DNA from: Dehalococcoidia bacterium
Lineage (GTDB): Bacteria; Chloroflexota; Dehalococcoidia; UBA2979
Direction of reading: 5' to 3'
NCBI GenBank assembly: GCA_963692775.1
Contig: OY839116.1
Location: 1,701,601-1,765,600 of the forward strand
DNA: 64,000 bases
A program made the position numbers and the translations under genes. Shown here one piece after another: positions 16,390-19,840 of this stretch. The notes beneath the pieces are model-generated. The model worked only from the letters and a program-made list of their open reading frames with translations, did not search any database and was not told the origin of the DNA. Within the stretch, counting starts at the first letter, position 1. Each line of letters opens with the position of its first letter.

Positions 16390-17181
16390 ATGAGCGACGA
16401 CGGACAACTGATCATCGAGGAGCGCGACCGCATCGCGTTCGTCACCTTCAACCGGCCCGAGAAGCTCAACGCCTGGACGTTCGAGATGAGCACCGAGCTG
16501 CGCGAGTACCTCTGGGGCCTCAACGAGGGCGACTACCGCATCCGCTGCGTGGTGATGACCGGCTCCGGGCGGGCCTTCTGCTCGGGCGCGGACGTCGGCA
16601 ACCTCGCGGCGCGGCAGGGCGGCGAGCGGCCGCCCTGGCGTCCACCGCACCCGGAGGCGCACATCACCGAGGCGCTGCGCCGCTGCAACGCGCCGGTGAT
16701 CGCCGCGATCAACGGCTACGCGCTGGGCATGGGCCTCGGCATCGCGATGGCCTGCGACATCCGCATCGCCGCGGACGACGCGCGCTTCCAGGTGGCGCAG
16801 ATGAAGCGCGGCCTCACCGCCGACACCGCGCTCGCCCACTCGCTGCCCGCCGCGATCGGCGCCGAGCGCGCGATGGAGCTGATGTTCACCGCGCGCATGA
16901 TCGAGGCGGACGAGGCGGAGCGGATCGGCCTCGTGCTGAAGGTCGTGCCCGCCGACAACCTGCTCGAGGAGGCCGAGGCGCTGGCGCGCGAGATCGCGAA
17001 GAGTGGCCCGCTCGGCGTCGCCGCCGCGAAGCGCACCGTCTACCTCCGCGACGACGACGCCTTCCAGCGCGCGCACGACTTCCTCGGCCTGACGATGGAC
17101 CGCCTCTTCTTCACCGAGGACGCCCGCGAGGGCATCCAGTCCTTCGCCGAGCGCCGCGAGCCGGAGTTCCCCGGCCGCTGA
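16390..17181 (+). CDS. Enoyl-CoA hydratase/isomerase family protein
   Basis: NRPEKLNA, AFCSGAD, IAAINGYALG, ACDIRIA, F.ERR.P.F. Confidence 0.92.
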   Translation: MSDDGQLIIEERDRIAFVTFNRPEKLNAWTFEMSTELREYLWGLNEGDYRIRCVVMTGSGRAFCSGADVGNLAARQGGERPPWRPPHPEAHITEALRRCNAPVIAAINGYALGMGLGIAMACDIRIAADDARFQVAQMKRGLTADTALAHSLPAAIGAERAMELMFTARMIEADEAERIGLVLKVVPADNLLEEAEALAREIAKSGPLGVAAAKRTVYLRDDDAFQRAHDFLGLTMDRLFFTEDAREGIQSFAERREPEFPGR

Positions 17182-17205
17182 CGGCCCGCCTCGCCCCTCC
17201 GGCCC

Positions 17206-17236
17206 CTCCCTTCCGGCCCCCTCTCCTGGGGGAGAG
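17206..17236 (+). repeat. Left part of CCCTCTCC-GGAGAGGG palindromic repeat, split by IS110
   Basis: 31 nt identical to 18910-18940. Confidence 0.9.
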
Positions 17237-17257
17237 ACTCCCCATGGTGCTAAGGCG

Positions 17258-18481
17258 TCAAGCGGCGAGCTGCTCGCGGTCGCGGCGGTGCGCCCAGGCG
17301 GTGGCCTCGTCGTAGGGGCGGCGCGTCCTGAGGCAGCCGTGGAGGTAGCCGACGAGGCGGTTGCCGAGGGCGCGCAGCGCCTGGTGGTGGAGGTCGCCGG
17401 CGGCGCGCCGCCGCAGGTAGAAGTCGTAGCAACCGGGGCTCGCCTGTAGCGCGCAGAGCGCCCAGCGGTCGGCGGCGTCGGCGAGCCGGCGGTTGCGCAC
17501 GAAGCGGGCGCGCACGCTGCGTTTGCGTCCCGATGCTACGGTCAGCGGCGAGGTGCCGGCGTAGTTCCTGCGGGACTTCGCCGACGCGTAGCGTTCGGGG
17601 TCGTCCCCGAACTCGCCGAGCACCCGGGCGCCGAGCACGAGACCGAGTCCGGGCAGGGAGCGGTAGAGCGCGGCGTCCGGGTGCTGCTCAAAATGGTCCG
17701 CCAGTTCGGCCTCGAGTGCGGCGATCTGCTGGTTGATCTCGCTGATCTGCCCGACCGTCGCGCGGGTGCTCGCGGCGAAGGCCCGGCTCACCACCTCCGA
17801 CACCTCGAGCTGCGGGGAGCGCAGCGCCTCGCGGACCGCGGCGGCGCGCCGCTCGAGGTTGCGCCGGCGGCCGCCGCGGCGGAGCGCGGCGCGCAGCCGG
17901 GTGCTGCTCAGCCGCGCCGCCTCGCGCGGGCCGGGCGCCGTGGCCAGCACGCCGAGGGCGTCGCCGTGGGCGAGCTTGGGAAACGCCCGCAGGGCGGCGG
18001 GAAAGTACTCCCTGAGGGCGTTGCGCAGGCGGTTGGTCTGGCGCGTGCGGTCCCAGATCAACTGCTGGTGCGCACGGGCGAGGATGCGCAGCGCGGCGGC
18101 CTCGTCAGTGTCGCCGGCGACCGGCCGGTGGTTGTGGCGGTCGGTGCGGACGAGGTCGGCGAGCAGCTTCGCGTCGGCGGCGTCGGACTTGGCGCCGCCG
18201 AGGTGGTGGCGCTCGCGGTAGCGCGCCGCCGAGCGCGGGTTGATCGCGTAGACGCGGTAGCCGGCGGCGAGCAGCGCCGCGACCCAGGGCCCGCGGTCGG
18301 TCTCGATGCCGACCACGACGTCGCCCGGGTCCGCGGCGTGCCGGGCGACCAGCTCGTGCAGCGCGGCGACGCCCGCGACGCCCTCGGGCAGCCGCTTGGC
18401 GGCGAGCCGCGCGCCGGCCTCGTTCATGAAATGGACGTCGTGGTGGTCCTCGGACCAGTCGTCGCCCACGTAGAGGGTCAT
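17258..18481 (-). CDS. IS110 family DEDD transposase/recombinase
   Basis: YVGDDWSEDHHD, GIET, KSDAAD (DEDD RuvC-like); SLPGLG...GEFGD..RY...YAGTSP..ASG Tnp domain; AAGGAGG RBS. Confidence 0.96.
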   Translation of the reverse strand: MTLYVGDDWSEDHHDVHFMNEAGARLAAKRLPEGVAGVAALHELVARHAADPGDVVVGIETDRGPWVAALLAAGYRVYAINPRSAARYRERHHLGGAKSDAADAKLLADLVRTDRHNHRPVAGDTDEAAALRILARAHQQLIWDRTRQTNRLRNALREYFPAALRAFPKLAHGDALGVLATAPGPREAARLSSTRLRAALRRGGRRRNLERRAAAVREALRSPQLEVSEVVSRAFAASTRATVGQISEINQQIAALEAELADHFEQHPDAALYRSLPGLGLVLGARVLGEFGDDPERYASAKSRRNYAGTSPLTVASGRKRSVRARFVRNRRLADAADRWALCALQASPGCYDFYLRRRAAGDLHHQALRALGNRLVGYLHGCLRTRRPYDEATAWAHRRDREQLAA

Positions 18482-18524
18482 CGTCTCAGTGCCTCCTTCG
18501 CTTCGTGCTGCCGGCTGCGACCCG

Positions 18525-18722
18525 CCGGGCTGGTCCCGCGACGGCCTAATGGAACAGTGCTCGCGGGCACGACACCCCATGAGTGCTGCGGACCACCCGG
18601 ACGCACCGGCCGGGGCGCGGTCTCTCCCGAGAGATCCAGAGGTCTCAGGGCGAGGAAGTGCTCACCGGCCGGCGGGCCCCGGACCAGTCTCCCAGATCGC
18701 TCCGGGGTTCTGGTCGAACCCC
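18525..18722 (-). ncRNA. Putative bridge RNA of the IS110 element
   Basis: 5' hairpin plus two internal loops with segments matching target (18647-55, 18622-28) and donor junction (18571-81, 18546-52). Confidence 0.82.
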
Positions 18723-18839
18723 ATTAGGGCGGGGGTGAGGGGGCTCGCCATTCGCTGCTACGAGCATCGATCGGTTGTTGCGCCCCCGGCGGCTCGTGCC
18801 CTGCGGGCGTCGGACGAGCAGGCGCTGCGCGCCGCTCGG

Positions 18840-18868
18840 CTGGATTCCGGCTTTCGCCGGAATGACGG
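18840..18868 (+). repeat. REP-like palindrome CTGGATTCCGGCTTTCGCCGGAATGACGG, copy 1
   Basis: 29 nt identical to 50981-51009; hairpin ATTCCGGC/GCCGGAAT. Confidence 0.9.
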
Positions 18869-18909
18869 AGGGGGAGGCGGAAGGACGGGGAGGGAGAGAC
18901 CGGCCGCCG

Positions 18910-18957
18910 CTCCCTTCCGGCCCCCTCTCCTGGGGGAGAGGGTTGGGGTGAGGGGGC
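18910..18957 (+). repeat. Intact CCCTCTCC-GGAGAGGG-GGGGTGAGGG repeat
   Basis: Matches the reconstructed IS target; related copies at 50871-50903 and 25746-25783. Confidence 0.88.
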
Positions 18958-19042
18958 ACGCCGGACTCCCGAGGACGCACGCACGCCCATTGGCTGCCCT
19001 GCCCCTCGCGCCCCAATGGCCTTGAGGTGAGCGAGGGCCGCG

Positions 19043-19840
19043 TCAGTAGTAGATCGCAGTGCCGGGGCCGCCGCCCGTGGCGATCGCGTCCCCGTTGATC
19101 GAGATTGACTTCGGGGAGGCGAGGAAGGCGACGACCCAGGCGACCTCGCGCGCGTCGACGAGGTGGTGGATCGAGTTGCCCTCGGCGAGTCGGCGCTCGA
19201 CCTCCTCCTCCGCCTCGCCCGCCTCGACGCGCGCGGCGATCATCTCCGCCGTGCGCTCGGTGCGGGTGCCGCCGGGGTGGACGACGGTGACGTTGATCCC
19301 GTCGGGCCCGAGCTCGTTCGCGAGGTTCTTCGTCAGCGCGGCGACGCCGACGTTGCGGATGCTGCCCGAGGTGTTGCCGGCGCGGCGCGCGCCGAGGCCG
19401 GAGACGTTGACGATCCGCCCCCAGCCCTGCTCCCGCATGATCGGCGCGACCGCCCGCGCGGTCCGCAGGTAGCCCAGCACCTTCACCTCGATGTCCGCGC
19501 GCACGTGATCGTCGCTCAGCTCCGCCAGCGGGACGGGCGGCAGCGCGCTGCCCGGCGAGGCGGCGTTGTTGACGAGGATGTCGATCCGTCCGAACGCCTC
19601 GTGCGCCGCCCGCACCATCGCCCGCACCGAGGCGTCGTCCGAGGTGTCGGCGGTCAGCGCCAGCACGCGGCGCCCGCTTTCCCCGGCGATCCCGGCGGCG
19701 GTCGCCTCCAGCGCCTCGCGCCCGCGCGCGACGGCCGCGACGTCGGCGCCCTCGAGGGCCAGTTCGCGCGCCACCGCCTTGCCGATGCCGCGGCTCGCGC
19801 CGGTCACGATCGCCACCTTCCCCGTCAGCTCCAGGTCCAT
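19043..19840 (-). CDS. SDR family oxidoreductase
   Basis: TGASRGIG, DILVNNA, GRIVNVSG; lacks canonical YxxxK. Confidence 0.92.
   Translation of the reverse strand: MDLELTGKVAIVTGASRGIGKAVARELALEGADVAAVARGREALEATAAGIAGESGRRVLALTADTSDDASVRAMVRAAHEAFGRIDILVNNAASPGSALPPVPLAELSDDHVRADIEVKVLGYLRTARAVAPIMREQGWGRIVNVSGLGARRAGNTSGSIRNVGVAALTKNLANELGPDGINVTVVHPGGTRTERTAEMIAARVEAGEAEEEVERRLAEGNSIHHLVDAREVAWVVAFLASPKSISINGDAIATGGGPGTAIYY

Follow-up and report, generated by a model that had tools for sequence, protein, structure and literature searches.

An IS110-group insertion sequence with a predicted bridge RNA in its left end, resident in palindromic repeats of a high-GC Dehalococcoidia genome

The window analysed here, a stretch of 64,000 nucleotides (nt) from the genome of a Dehalococcoidia bacterium (contig OY839116.1), carries on its minus strand an IS110-group insertion sequence (IS) of 1,493 bp (18727..17235, counted with the CT core dinucleotide at each end). 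The element is without terminal inverted repeats and consists of a non-coding left end of 246 nt, an open reading frame (ORF) of 407 amino acids and about 23 nt past the stop codon. A first-pass annotation had proposed that this is an intact IS110 element whose left end holds a bispecific bridge RNA of the IS621 type, and that proposal was upheld by the covariation of guides with targets, of stems and of handshake bases, by the catalytic residues of the recombinase and by structural matches. From the sequence, and by analogy with IS621, we consider it highly probable that this is an active or recently active element which moves by bridge-RNA-guided recombination. The IS621 bridge recombinase and its bridge RNA were described in 2024 by Durrant et al. 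and Hiraizumi et al. The element, its gene and its flanks comprise the following features:

17235 to 18727, minus strand: the whole IS110-group element (copy comparison; ends and flanks read in 12 copies).
17258 to 18481, minus strand: recombinase gene, 407 codons from 18481 to 17261 plus the stop codon to 17258, with RuvC-like DEDD and Tnp domains.
18492 to 18498, minus strand: Shine-Dalgarno-like AAGGAGG, 10 nt ahead of the ATG (read from the sequence).
18728 to 18734, minus strand: left target half (LT), CCCCGCC, in the left part of a repetitive extragenic palindromic (REP)-like repeat (flanks of 12 copies).
17230 to 17234, minus strand: right target half (RT), CTCCC, part of the 5' arm in the hairpin CCCTCTCCC..GGGAGAGGG of the REP (12 of 12 copies; 32 of 33 empty sites).
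17239, minus strand: private T-to-A change in the left donor half (1 of 12 copies).
17256 to 17261, minus strand: candidate -35 element TTGACG in the right end; its partner TCTAAT would be made of 17235-17237 plus 18723-18725 (consensus match).

The host genome is a single contig of 3.22 Mb with 71.6% G+C, consistent with the high-GC host that had been proposed, and it holds 12 full-length copies of the element that are 99.46-100% identical. The first 246 nt are the same in all 12 copies and the recombinase ORF is intact in every one, the encoded protein being equal to that of the window copy in 8 of the 12. A long left end, a short right end and a CT repeated at both junctions, which are the marks of the IS110 group, were found in all copies, and all of the guides described below lie in the left end, which is not the arrangement of the IS1111 group. 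The change at 17239 occurs in the window copy alone, and because its own donor half is thereby mismatched, this copy is probably a poorer donor than its 11 siblings; it appears from its sequence to encode an intact RNA and an intact protein.

All 12 copies lie within one repeat family, each flanked by CT, and have in common the flank pattern ...CCCTCACC[C/T]C[A/G]CC, CT, IS, CT, CTCCC..., of which the window's own flanks (...CCCCGCC-CT-IS-CT-CTCCC) are as the first-pass annotation had described them. The seven left target bases are CCCCACC in seven copies, CCCCGCC in two and CCTCACC in three, and the right flank begins CTCCC in all 12. When rejoined, the flanks form the 5' arm of a palindrome, CCCTCTCCC-loop-GGGAGAGGG. 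There are 33 empty sites in the genome that match CC[CT]C[AG]CCCTCTCCC, all 33 with CCCTCAC just upstream and 32 with the inverted arm no more than 28 nt away. The palindromic genomic repeat to which the element had been matched is therefore borne out, both by the insertion sites, which rejoin to a REP-like arm, and by the empty copies, and the element is REP-targeted. One uninterrupted copy of the repeat (18910-18942) lies 190 bp from the element, in the intergenic stretch upstream of it (18800-18960, minus strand); this stretch also contains further GC-rich palindromes, which give spurious matches to Rfam microRNA models (17-24 bits, far under the gathering scores).

The element is evidently recently active in this high-GC Dehalococcoidia host. 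It is quite unlikely, in our judgement, that the guides are real but the element is an immobile relic whose copy number arose by segmental duplication: two tandem copies stand 142 bp apart with duplicated flanks, three copies have a long left flank in common and the window copy has a donor mismatch, but all 12 ORFs are intact, all 12 guide regions are identical, the right flanks differ between the copies with the common left flank, and relatives hold many copies with reprogrammed guides. The tandem pair (G000:C1:2373548-2375040 and 2375183-2376675) has near-identical flanks on both sides, and beyond it, at about 2376809, is a third, empty copy of the same REP; the pair is either a duplication of the IS plus its spacer or the result of serial insertions into a REP array. 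In a solo remnant at another locus (L013, G000:C1:1397484-1397539), the left REP half together with the initial 40 nt of the element (100% identical) runs straight into GGGAGTCGGA, which resembles a REP right arm. The remnant resembles what an imprecise deletion would leave behind, or an aberrant excision between the left-end GGGAGA and the REP arm. Among public sequencing runs, X1-X4 contain the element at 0.99-1.00 of its words; they may be the source sample, so they are not independent support. Joints from 17234 to 18726, present in two contigs of X1 and two of X5, were considered as evidence of excision and rejected; their shorter side is 23-24 nt and lies within the repeat, and most simply they are other, empty REP copies. 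A tblastn search against plasmids returned generic "IS110 family transposase" names only, the best at 68% identity on Mycobacterium and Rhodococcus plasmids, and no ISfinder name.

The predicted bridge RNA lies in the left end, and its guides and structural modules are listed here in the order of guides, candidate handshake bases and helices:

18647 to 18655, minus strand: left target guide CCUCGCCCU, in the same sense as LT plus core, which would pair with the bottom strand (homologue comparison; shuffles).
18622 to 18628, minus strand: right target guide GGGAGAG, the complement of CTCTCCC, which is made up of core and RT (homologue comparison).
18571 to 18581, minus strand: left donor guide CAUGGGGUGUC, of which the 9 nt UGGGGUGUC (18571-18579) are kept in homologues; the 11-mer fits the right end of 11 of the 12 copies.
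18546 to 18552, minus strand: right donor guide CCAUUAG, the complement of CTAATGG, which is made up of core and left end (shuffles; invariant in 39 of 39 aligned homologues).
18620 to 18621, minus strand: candidate handshake guide of the target loop, AC (71 of 71 elements).
18544 to 18545, minus strand: candidate donor-loop handshake guide, GC, whose first base is the complement of target position 7 (element tally).
18682 to 18715, minus strand: 5' stem-loop (covarying helix 1).
18605 to 18673, minus strand: target-binding loop module, with a 14-bp closing stem, an internal loop and a terminal hairpin (covarying helix 2).
18631 to 18646, minus strand: hairpin in the target loop, GAGA...UCUC (covarying helix 3).
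18527 to 18598, minus strand: donor-binding loop module, with a three-part closing stem, an internal loop and a terminal hairpin (covariation in alignment A2).
18557 to 18570, minus strand: hairpin in the donor loop, GUGC...GCAC (100% paired).

All guide motifs of the first-pass annotation were found where it had placed them on the minus strand. The left target guide scores 8.5 of 9 and the right target guide 7 of 7; CCGGCCGG occurs twice (IS positions 56-63 and 115-122), and GAGA/UCUC, GUGC/GCAC and CUGGUCC/GGACCAG are present as well. Against the consensus ends the donor guides match at 11 of 11 and 7 of 7 positions. The count of 10 of 11 given earlier for the left donor guide needs correction, as CATGGGGTGTCT terminates 11 of the 12 copies and it is the window copy that deviates at 17239. 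To gauge chance, the 5' end was shuffled 20,000 times with dinucleotides preserved. The score of the left target guide was equalled in 519 shuffles and that of the right target guide in 2,107, compared to two for the left donor guide and 20 for the right donor guide; no shuffle equalled the four scores jointly. From the window alone, the donor guides are strong evidence and the target guides are weak evidence, because so many shuffles match the latter in GC-rich sequence.

A scan of one genome per species returned 296 relatives, of which the best 80 were kept; these include Dehalococcoidia metagenome-assembled genomes (76-88% protein identity) and Actinomycetota (Mycobacterium, Smaragdicoccus and others; 64-70% protein identity). 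For 62 of these 80 loci the two ends could be placed, which with the window gives 63 elements with 31 distinct 5' ends and 21 distinct target-loop inserts. The guide-target test comprised 17 guide classes and 13 distinct modal targets, every class being compared with every target at equal register freedom; L100 was left out of it as its flank is shorter than 7 nt. The target loops have a conserved framework, in which GGUGAGC[A/U]CU is followed by the left guide, a small hairpin, a right guide ending in AG and then AC[C/U]G.GCCC, and in every class the 7 nt that directly precede the conserved AC[C/U]G form the right target guide. Within this framework both guide segments vary together with the flanking target, as in these examples:

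L060: left guide CUGAUCCCU, right guide CACGAAG, flanks CCGACCC-CT-TCGTG.
L084: left guide CAACAACCU, right guide GACGUAG, flanks CAACAAC-CT-ACGTG.
L108: left guide CCCUCACCU, flank CCCTCAC-CT.
L090: right guide GGCCUAG, flank CT-AGGCC.
L040 to L043: left guide changed to GGCUCCCU and right guide kept as GGGAGAG; the left half of the target is changed and the right half is CTCCC.

The cognate target ranked top in all 17 guide classes. The summed guide-target score was 237, compared to a permutation mean of 181.7 (standard deviation 6.3), and was equalled in none of 20,000 permutations; the same was true of the left guides alone (126 vs. 99.0 permuted) and of the right guides alone (111 vs. 82.7 permuted), each with 0 of 20,000. 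The covariation check that had been proposed for this RNA thus came out in its favour, with the target guides changing along with the flanking targets.

The fold of the RNA was approached through alignments of homologous 5' ends, A1 with 39 sequences and A2 with 38, using RNAalifold, explicit pair counts and 500 shuffles. In A1 four helices were supported, with 98.3% of cells paired vs. 92.3% in shuffles, a covariation of 0.302 vs. 0.175 (equalled in 0 of 500) and, as a control, no more than 45% of cells paired once the 3' partners were slid. The 5' stem-loop, GACCAG (IS 13-18) with CUGGUC (IS 41-46), is 95.4% paired, and its pair 16:65 occurs as CG in 27 sequences, AU in four, UA in four and UG in three. 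The closing stem of the target loop, 14 bp with CCGGCCGG in both arms, is 98.4% paired with both sides changed in six of its 14 pairs, and the inner hairpin of the target loop is 100% paired with both sides changed in three of four pairs; the first-pass annotation had named both of these, as the stem that closes the target loop and the GAGA/UCUC hairpin that splits its guides. At one pair of the closing stem (18613-18672; alignment columns 95:142) the window element has an A-C mismatch, where the other 38 homologues have A-U (26), U-A (8) or G-C (4). The inner hairpin of the donor loop, GUGC/GCAC, is also 100% paired, its stem invariant and its loop variable, with no informative variation. In A2 the donor-loop closing stem (GGGU/GCCC, UCC/GGA, GCAC/GUxGC) is 97.2% paired with a covariation of 0.266 vs. 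0.173 in shuffles (0 of 500), while the number of pairs changed on both sides, five, is not above that of shuffles (151 of 500 equal it). The fold check made on the homologue consensus accordingly gave the two internal-loop modules with covarying stems, and the RNA is predicted from this covariation to fold into a 5' stem-loop followed by these two modules.

Two helices of the earlier annotation did not hold. The GGGGUUC/GAACCCC motif of its 5' hairpin is present at 18704-18722, but its pairing is no better than that of shuffles in the 39 homologues, and the outer closure of both loops by CUGGUCC/GGACCAG gives way to the pairing of CUGGUC with GACCAG in the 5' stem-loop, GGGACC pairing with GGUCC at IS 134-138 within the donor-loop stem. 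Taken together, these two rejected helices were 65.8% paired vs. 65.7% in shuffles, with a covariation of 0.155 vs. 0.159 (319 of 500 shuffles equal it). A pairing of the right donor guide with IS 1-7 is also drawn by RNAalifold; this is trivially the donor site itself, and IS 1-7 would not belong to an RNA that is initiated downstream of the junction -10.

In contrast to the target guides, the donor guides are nearly constant across the clade, as are the element ends, CTAATGG... and ...TGGGGTGTCT. Comparison of the 9-nt UGGGGUGUC with the donor in 67 elements showed full Watson-Crick complementarity in 60, one rG:dT wobble in six and one mismatch in one. At the variable donor position, guide and donor are G/G in most elements, A/A in four and G/A (a wobble) in six; A/G was found in none. 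One locus, L048, was considered as a naturally reprogrammed donor loop and rejected: it is the same element with about 1.18 kb of foreign sequence inserted right after CCAUUAGG. This insertion (L048:257-1436) is nested in the IS110 element past the right donor guide, with TTAGG on both sides, and splits the bridge-RNA region.

The bases that follow the right guides provide a second test. In the IS621 papers (PMC11208158, PMC13626964), each right guide is described as followed on its 3' side by two bases that, once strands have been exchanged, pair with the other DNA partner. In this clade the right guide of the target loop is followed by A and then C or U in 71 of 71 elements tallied, and AC is the complement of GT, at donor positions 6-7, and not of CC, at target positions 6-7. 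Of the 65 elements with G as the donor-loop base after CAUUAG, 62 have C at target position 7 and three have T; the six elements with C as that base (L094-L097, L106 and L107) all have G at target position 7. This tracking of target position 7 by a donor-loop base is an independent, position-specific covariation of the kind predicted by the IS621 mechanism.

The protein has the domains expected of such an element, Pfam PF01548 (DEDD_Tnp_IS110; 5e-39, residues 5-161) and PF02371 (Transposase_20; 6.4e-10, residues 273-355), and matches the NCBIfam model NF033542, "IS110 family RNA-guided transposase", whose cut-off of 140 bits it exceeds with a score of 198.7. When a profile was built from 12 homologues, it matched the IS621 transposase 8wt6_A (2.7e-11) and the ISCro4 transposase 9t56_A (3.5e-11), and aligned D8, D100, D103 and S317-G318 with D11, D102, D105 and S241-G242 of IS621; the chain numbering of 8wt6_A is that of the paper plus 2. 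These residues, along with E60, are invariant in all 12 sequences of the protein alignment A3, which was made without L090, L108 and L109. The catalytic D, E, D and D and the Ser-Gly of the IS110 group therefore appear to be kept, E60 being assigned by motif. The ten top Foldseek matches of the predicted structure are all ISCro4 or IS621 chains, with target-normalised template-modelling (TM) scores of 0.64-0.70 and 17-19% identity, followed by Nop5 and TIGR-TasR; the best is ISCro4 9t56_B (E 1.7e-09, TM 0.70). The model thus suggests that the recombinase folds like those of IS621 and ISCro4 at about 18% identity.

Since the guide segments lie on unpaired strands of two internal loops in the RNA, and the stems of these loops show the covariation of RNA helices with G-U pairs included, we think it most improbable that they act instead as DNA, that is, as subterminal copies of the ends and target that are read directly by the protein with no guide RNA. 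That idea would fit with the donor guides being internal copies of the ends and with no transcript having been observed in the RNA runs, but the enrichment of rU opposite dG at non-Watson-Crick guide positions (19 of 61), the RNA-guided nature of the solved complexes of this family (PMC11208158) and the match to the NCBIfam RNA-guided transposase model all count against it. The proposal that the 5' structure is a mere leader controlling transposase translation or transcription, its resemblance to target and ends arising by chance at 72% G+C, is in our judgement the least credible of all, even though the fold energy is not better than that of shuffles, the target-guide matches alone are equalled in 519 and 2,107 of 20,000 shuffles and a preprint reports that the IS621 5' stem-loop dampens downstream expression, because all four matches occur jointly in no shuffle, the guides follow their targets in 17 of 17 classes, where a pure leader would not track flanking DNA, and one loop base tracks target position 7.

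Several observations weigh against bridge-RNA-guided movement of this element. Before the covariation test 18 of the 80 loci were left out, as both ends were not found by the end patterns (L039, L048, L085, L089, L093-L099, L101, L102, L104-L107 and L110; truncated or interrupted copies are among them). The left target guides are imperfect, with 170 Watson-Crick cells among the 231 outside the core; of the other 61, 36 are mismatched and 25 are wobble-compatible, a wobble count slightly inflated by register scanning, and 19 of the 61 have rU opposite dG (top-strand C). The left flanks fit poorly in L047, L056 and L063, the best left-guide match is found in a shifted register in L079, L081 and L109, and the right flank of L037 and L038, AACCC, is unmatched by their right guide. 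As the donor guides barely vary, their covariation test is thin, with one variable position, and L109 has a single donor-guide mismatch. No more than 43 of 67 elements match the donor at the two bases 5' of UGGGG, and the conserved left donor guide is therefore 9 nt; of the 11-nt guide first proposed, all 11 positions match in this genome, but across homologues only the 9 nt stand. Ten of the 12 residents are at wobble sites, with A at left-target position 5, where the guide has G (rG:dT), and the 23 sites with G, which would form G:C with the guide, are empty; A at this position is found in 10 of 12 occupied vs. 10 of 33 empty compatible sites (Fisher p = 0.0023, for 12 insertions whose independence is uncertain). 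The single-sequence minimum-free-energy fold is no better than shuffles (z = -0.18, 87 of 200 as good); such a fold is uninformative at 72% G+C, and for this reason homologue alignments were used. An Rfam 15 scan of 17000-19200 with E up to 10 gave no family over the 5' end (18482-18727), from a collection that may lack a bridge-RNA model. For the protein, single-sequence phmmer against the PDB with E up to 10 found no relative, HMMER places E60 two columns from E60 of IS621, so that their equivalence depends on the GIE/CIE motif, and the AlphaFold model is moderate, with a predicted local distance difference test (pLDDT) score of 70.9 and residues 284-333, around the catalytic Ser, below 50. 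Lastly, the RNA runs X19 and X20 (0.07 of words) yielded 2 and 52 contigs of relatives, 88-99% alike and mostly over the ORF; those of X20 give slight cover at 18516-18633, and contigs of relatives show neither transcript ends nor strand.

Two side observations concern loci and matches just mentioned. L086, a sibling with the guide of L037 and L038, occupies a CTCCCC site, and L039, a 5'-truncated copy without a target loop, has the same odd right flank (AACCC...) as those two; the odd right flanks of all three may have arisen by recombination between copies. The only real Rfam match in 17000-19200 is RF02464 (Ms_AS-4, "Actinobacteria sRNA"), which is antisense to the ORF at 17576-17657 on the plus strand (72.2 bits vs. 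a gathering score of 50, E 1.3e-10, full length), opposite the part of the recombinase gene that encodes the conserved GEFGDDP. Ms_AS-4 seems to represent IS110 transposase genes read in antisense, and not a free-standing small RNA.

A candidate promoter would be formed when the element ends are joined. The right-end TTGACG overlaps the stop codon, and in a circle with one CT it would be separated by an 18-nt spacer from TCTAAT, which spans the joint; together they make 10 of 12 matches to a consensus that may not be that of this host. The 22 distinct right-end variants listed (64 sequences) all have TTGAC at this distance. As a consensus match, this candidate mirrors the IS621 promoter, which forms at the circle junction (PMC11208160, PMC13626964). 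In the integrated element a scan found 0 promoter-like and 0 terminator-like sites.

By analogy with IS621, bridge-RNA-guided movement of this element would begin with its excision as a circle in which the right and left ends are joined around one CT. The junction promoter so assembled, with the right-end TTGACG and TCTAAT over the joint, would drive the synthesis of a non-coding RNA from approximately 200 nt at the start of the left end, and probably that of the recombinase mRNA too. The target-loop guides would address the 14-nt site in the 5' arm of the REP-like palindrome, and in the donor loop (CA)UGGGGUGUC and CCAUUAG would pair likewise with the joined element ends. The dinucleotides after the 3' guides, AC and GC, being complementary to the other DNA partner, could provide a handshake that favours strand exchange towards insertion. 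On the basis of the conserved residues and the IS621 structures, a tetramer of the 407-residue DEDD/Ser recombinase is expected to cut next to the CT and exchange strands.

The only non-core U and G of the left target guide fall at the two polymorphic REP positions (C/T and A/G). It is possible, if rather doubtful, that this guide is deliberately degenerate, with one RNA serving four REP variants via rU:dG and rG:dT pairs, and that wobble sites act as one-way traps at which insertion is tolerated and excision disfavoured, a directionality that would account for the surplus of residents at such sites. If true, this would offer a natural rule for multi-site or irreversible bridge-RNA targeting, from a clade with at least 13 reprogrammed targets and 407-residue recombinases.

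The IS621 layout and life cycle used for comparison are those given in PMC11208160, PMC11208158 and PMC13626964. IS621, from E. coli, and this element both have the bridge RNA in a long left end, a short right end and a CT core, the order 5' stem-loop, target loop and donor loop with handshake dinucleotides after each 3' guide, a DEDD plus Ser-Gly active site and REP targeting. They differ in host, here a high-GC Dehalococcoidia, and in the recombinase, which is only 17-19% identical in structural alignment (single-sequence phmmer misses IS621) and has 407 residues compared to 326, with about 80 extra residues between RuvC and Tnp (about 156-250 is unaligned in HMMER). The right donor guide is a contiguous 7-mer here and discontiguous in IS621 (PMC11208160), and the right target guide is 7 nt here, compared to four nt paired in the IS621 structure (PMC11208158). 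ISCro4, which with IS622 is among the bridge recombinases used for human genome rearrangement, is the best structural match at about 18% identity.

Like ISPpu10 and ISPpu9 of Pseudomonas putida, this element inserts into one many-copy REP family, with its target in or next to a genomic hairpin; the cut site here differs in being within the 5' arm of the hairpin and not beside an upstream stem-loop. A preprint reports a G-U wobble at the left target of ISPpu10, which may be likened to the U and G of our guide at the two polymorphic target positions, and describes the ISPpu10 bridge RNA without a 5' stem-loop, unlike the covarying one found here. The IS1111 group (seekRNA, or right-end bridge RNA) has the same DEDD transposase family and RNA-guided principle (PMC11208160), but its RNA is in a long right end and its subterminal inverted repeats are 7-17 bp, as opposed to a right end of about 23 nt and an RNA in the 246-nt left end here.

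For 85.7% of the IS110 elements in ISfinder, and for thousands of orthologues, bridge RNAs were predicted by Durrant et al. (PMC11208160), and a 2026 preprint, a general mining study that mentions both "bridge RNA" and "Chloroflex", clustered 181,180 IS110-adjacent sequences. With bridge RNAs already known as a general feature of IS110 elements and already mined at scale, the first-pass annotation overstated the novelty of this element, which is a well-supported relative of the known IS621 bridge-RNA recombinases. Its description as an uncharacterised orthologue fits, given the identity of about 18% to the solved recombinases, and in the main-text literature no description of a Chloroflexota or Mycobacterium bridge RNA was found, though the clade may be listed in the supplements to PMC11208160 and to the mining preprint.

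The concept is unchanged by this element, as the mechanism, its generality in the IS110 family and its large-scale mining are already in print. Bridge recombinases are under development as programmable tools for DNA insertion, excision and inversion. To our knowledge, those that have been characterised (IS621, ISCro4/IS622 and ISPpu10) are all from Proteobacteria. Here, a single high-GC Dehalococcoidia genome has 12 identical guide regions and 33 spare target sites, and in close relatives the target loop has been reprogrammed by nature in at least 13 ways while the donor loop stayed fixed. Together these provide a natural data set on the guide positions, wobble pairs and handshake bases that are tolerated in a recombinase about 18% identical to those that have been solved.

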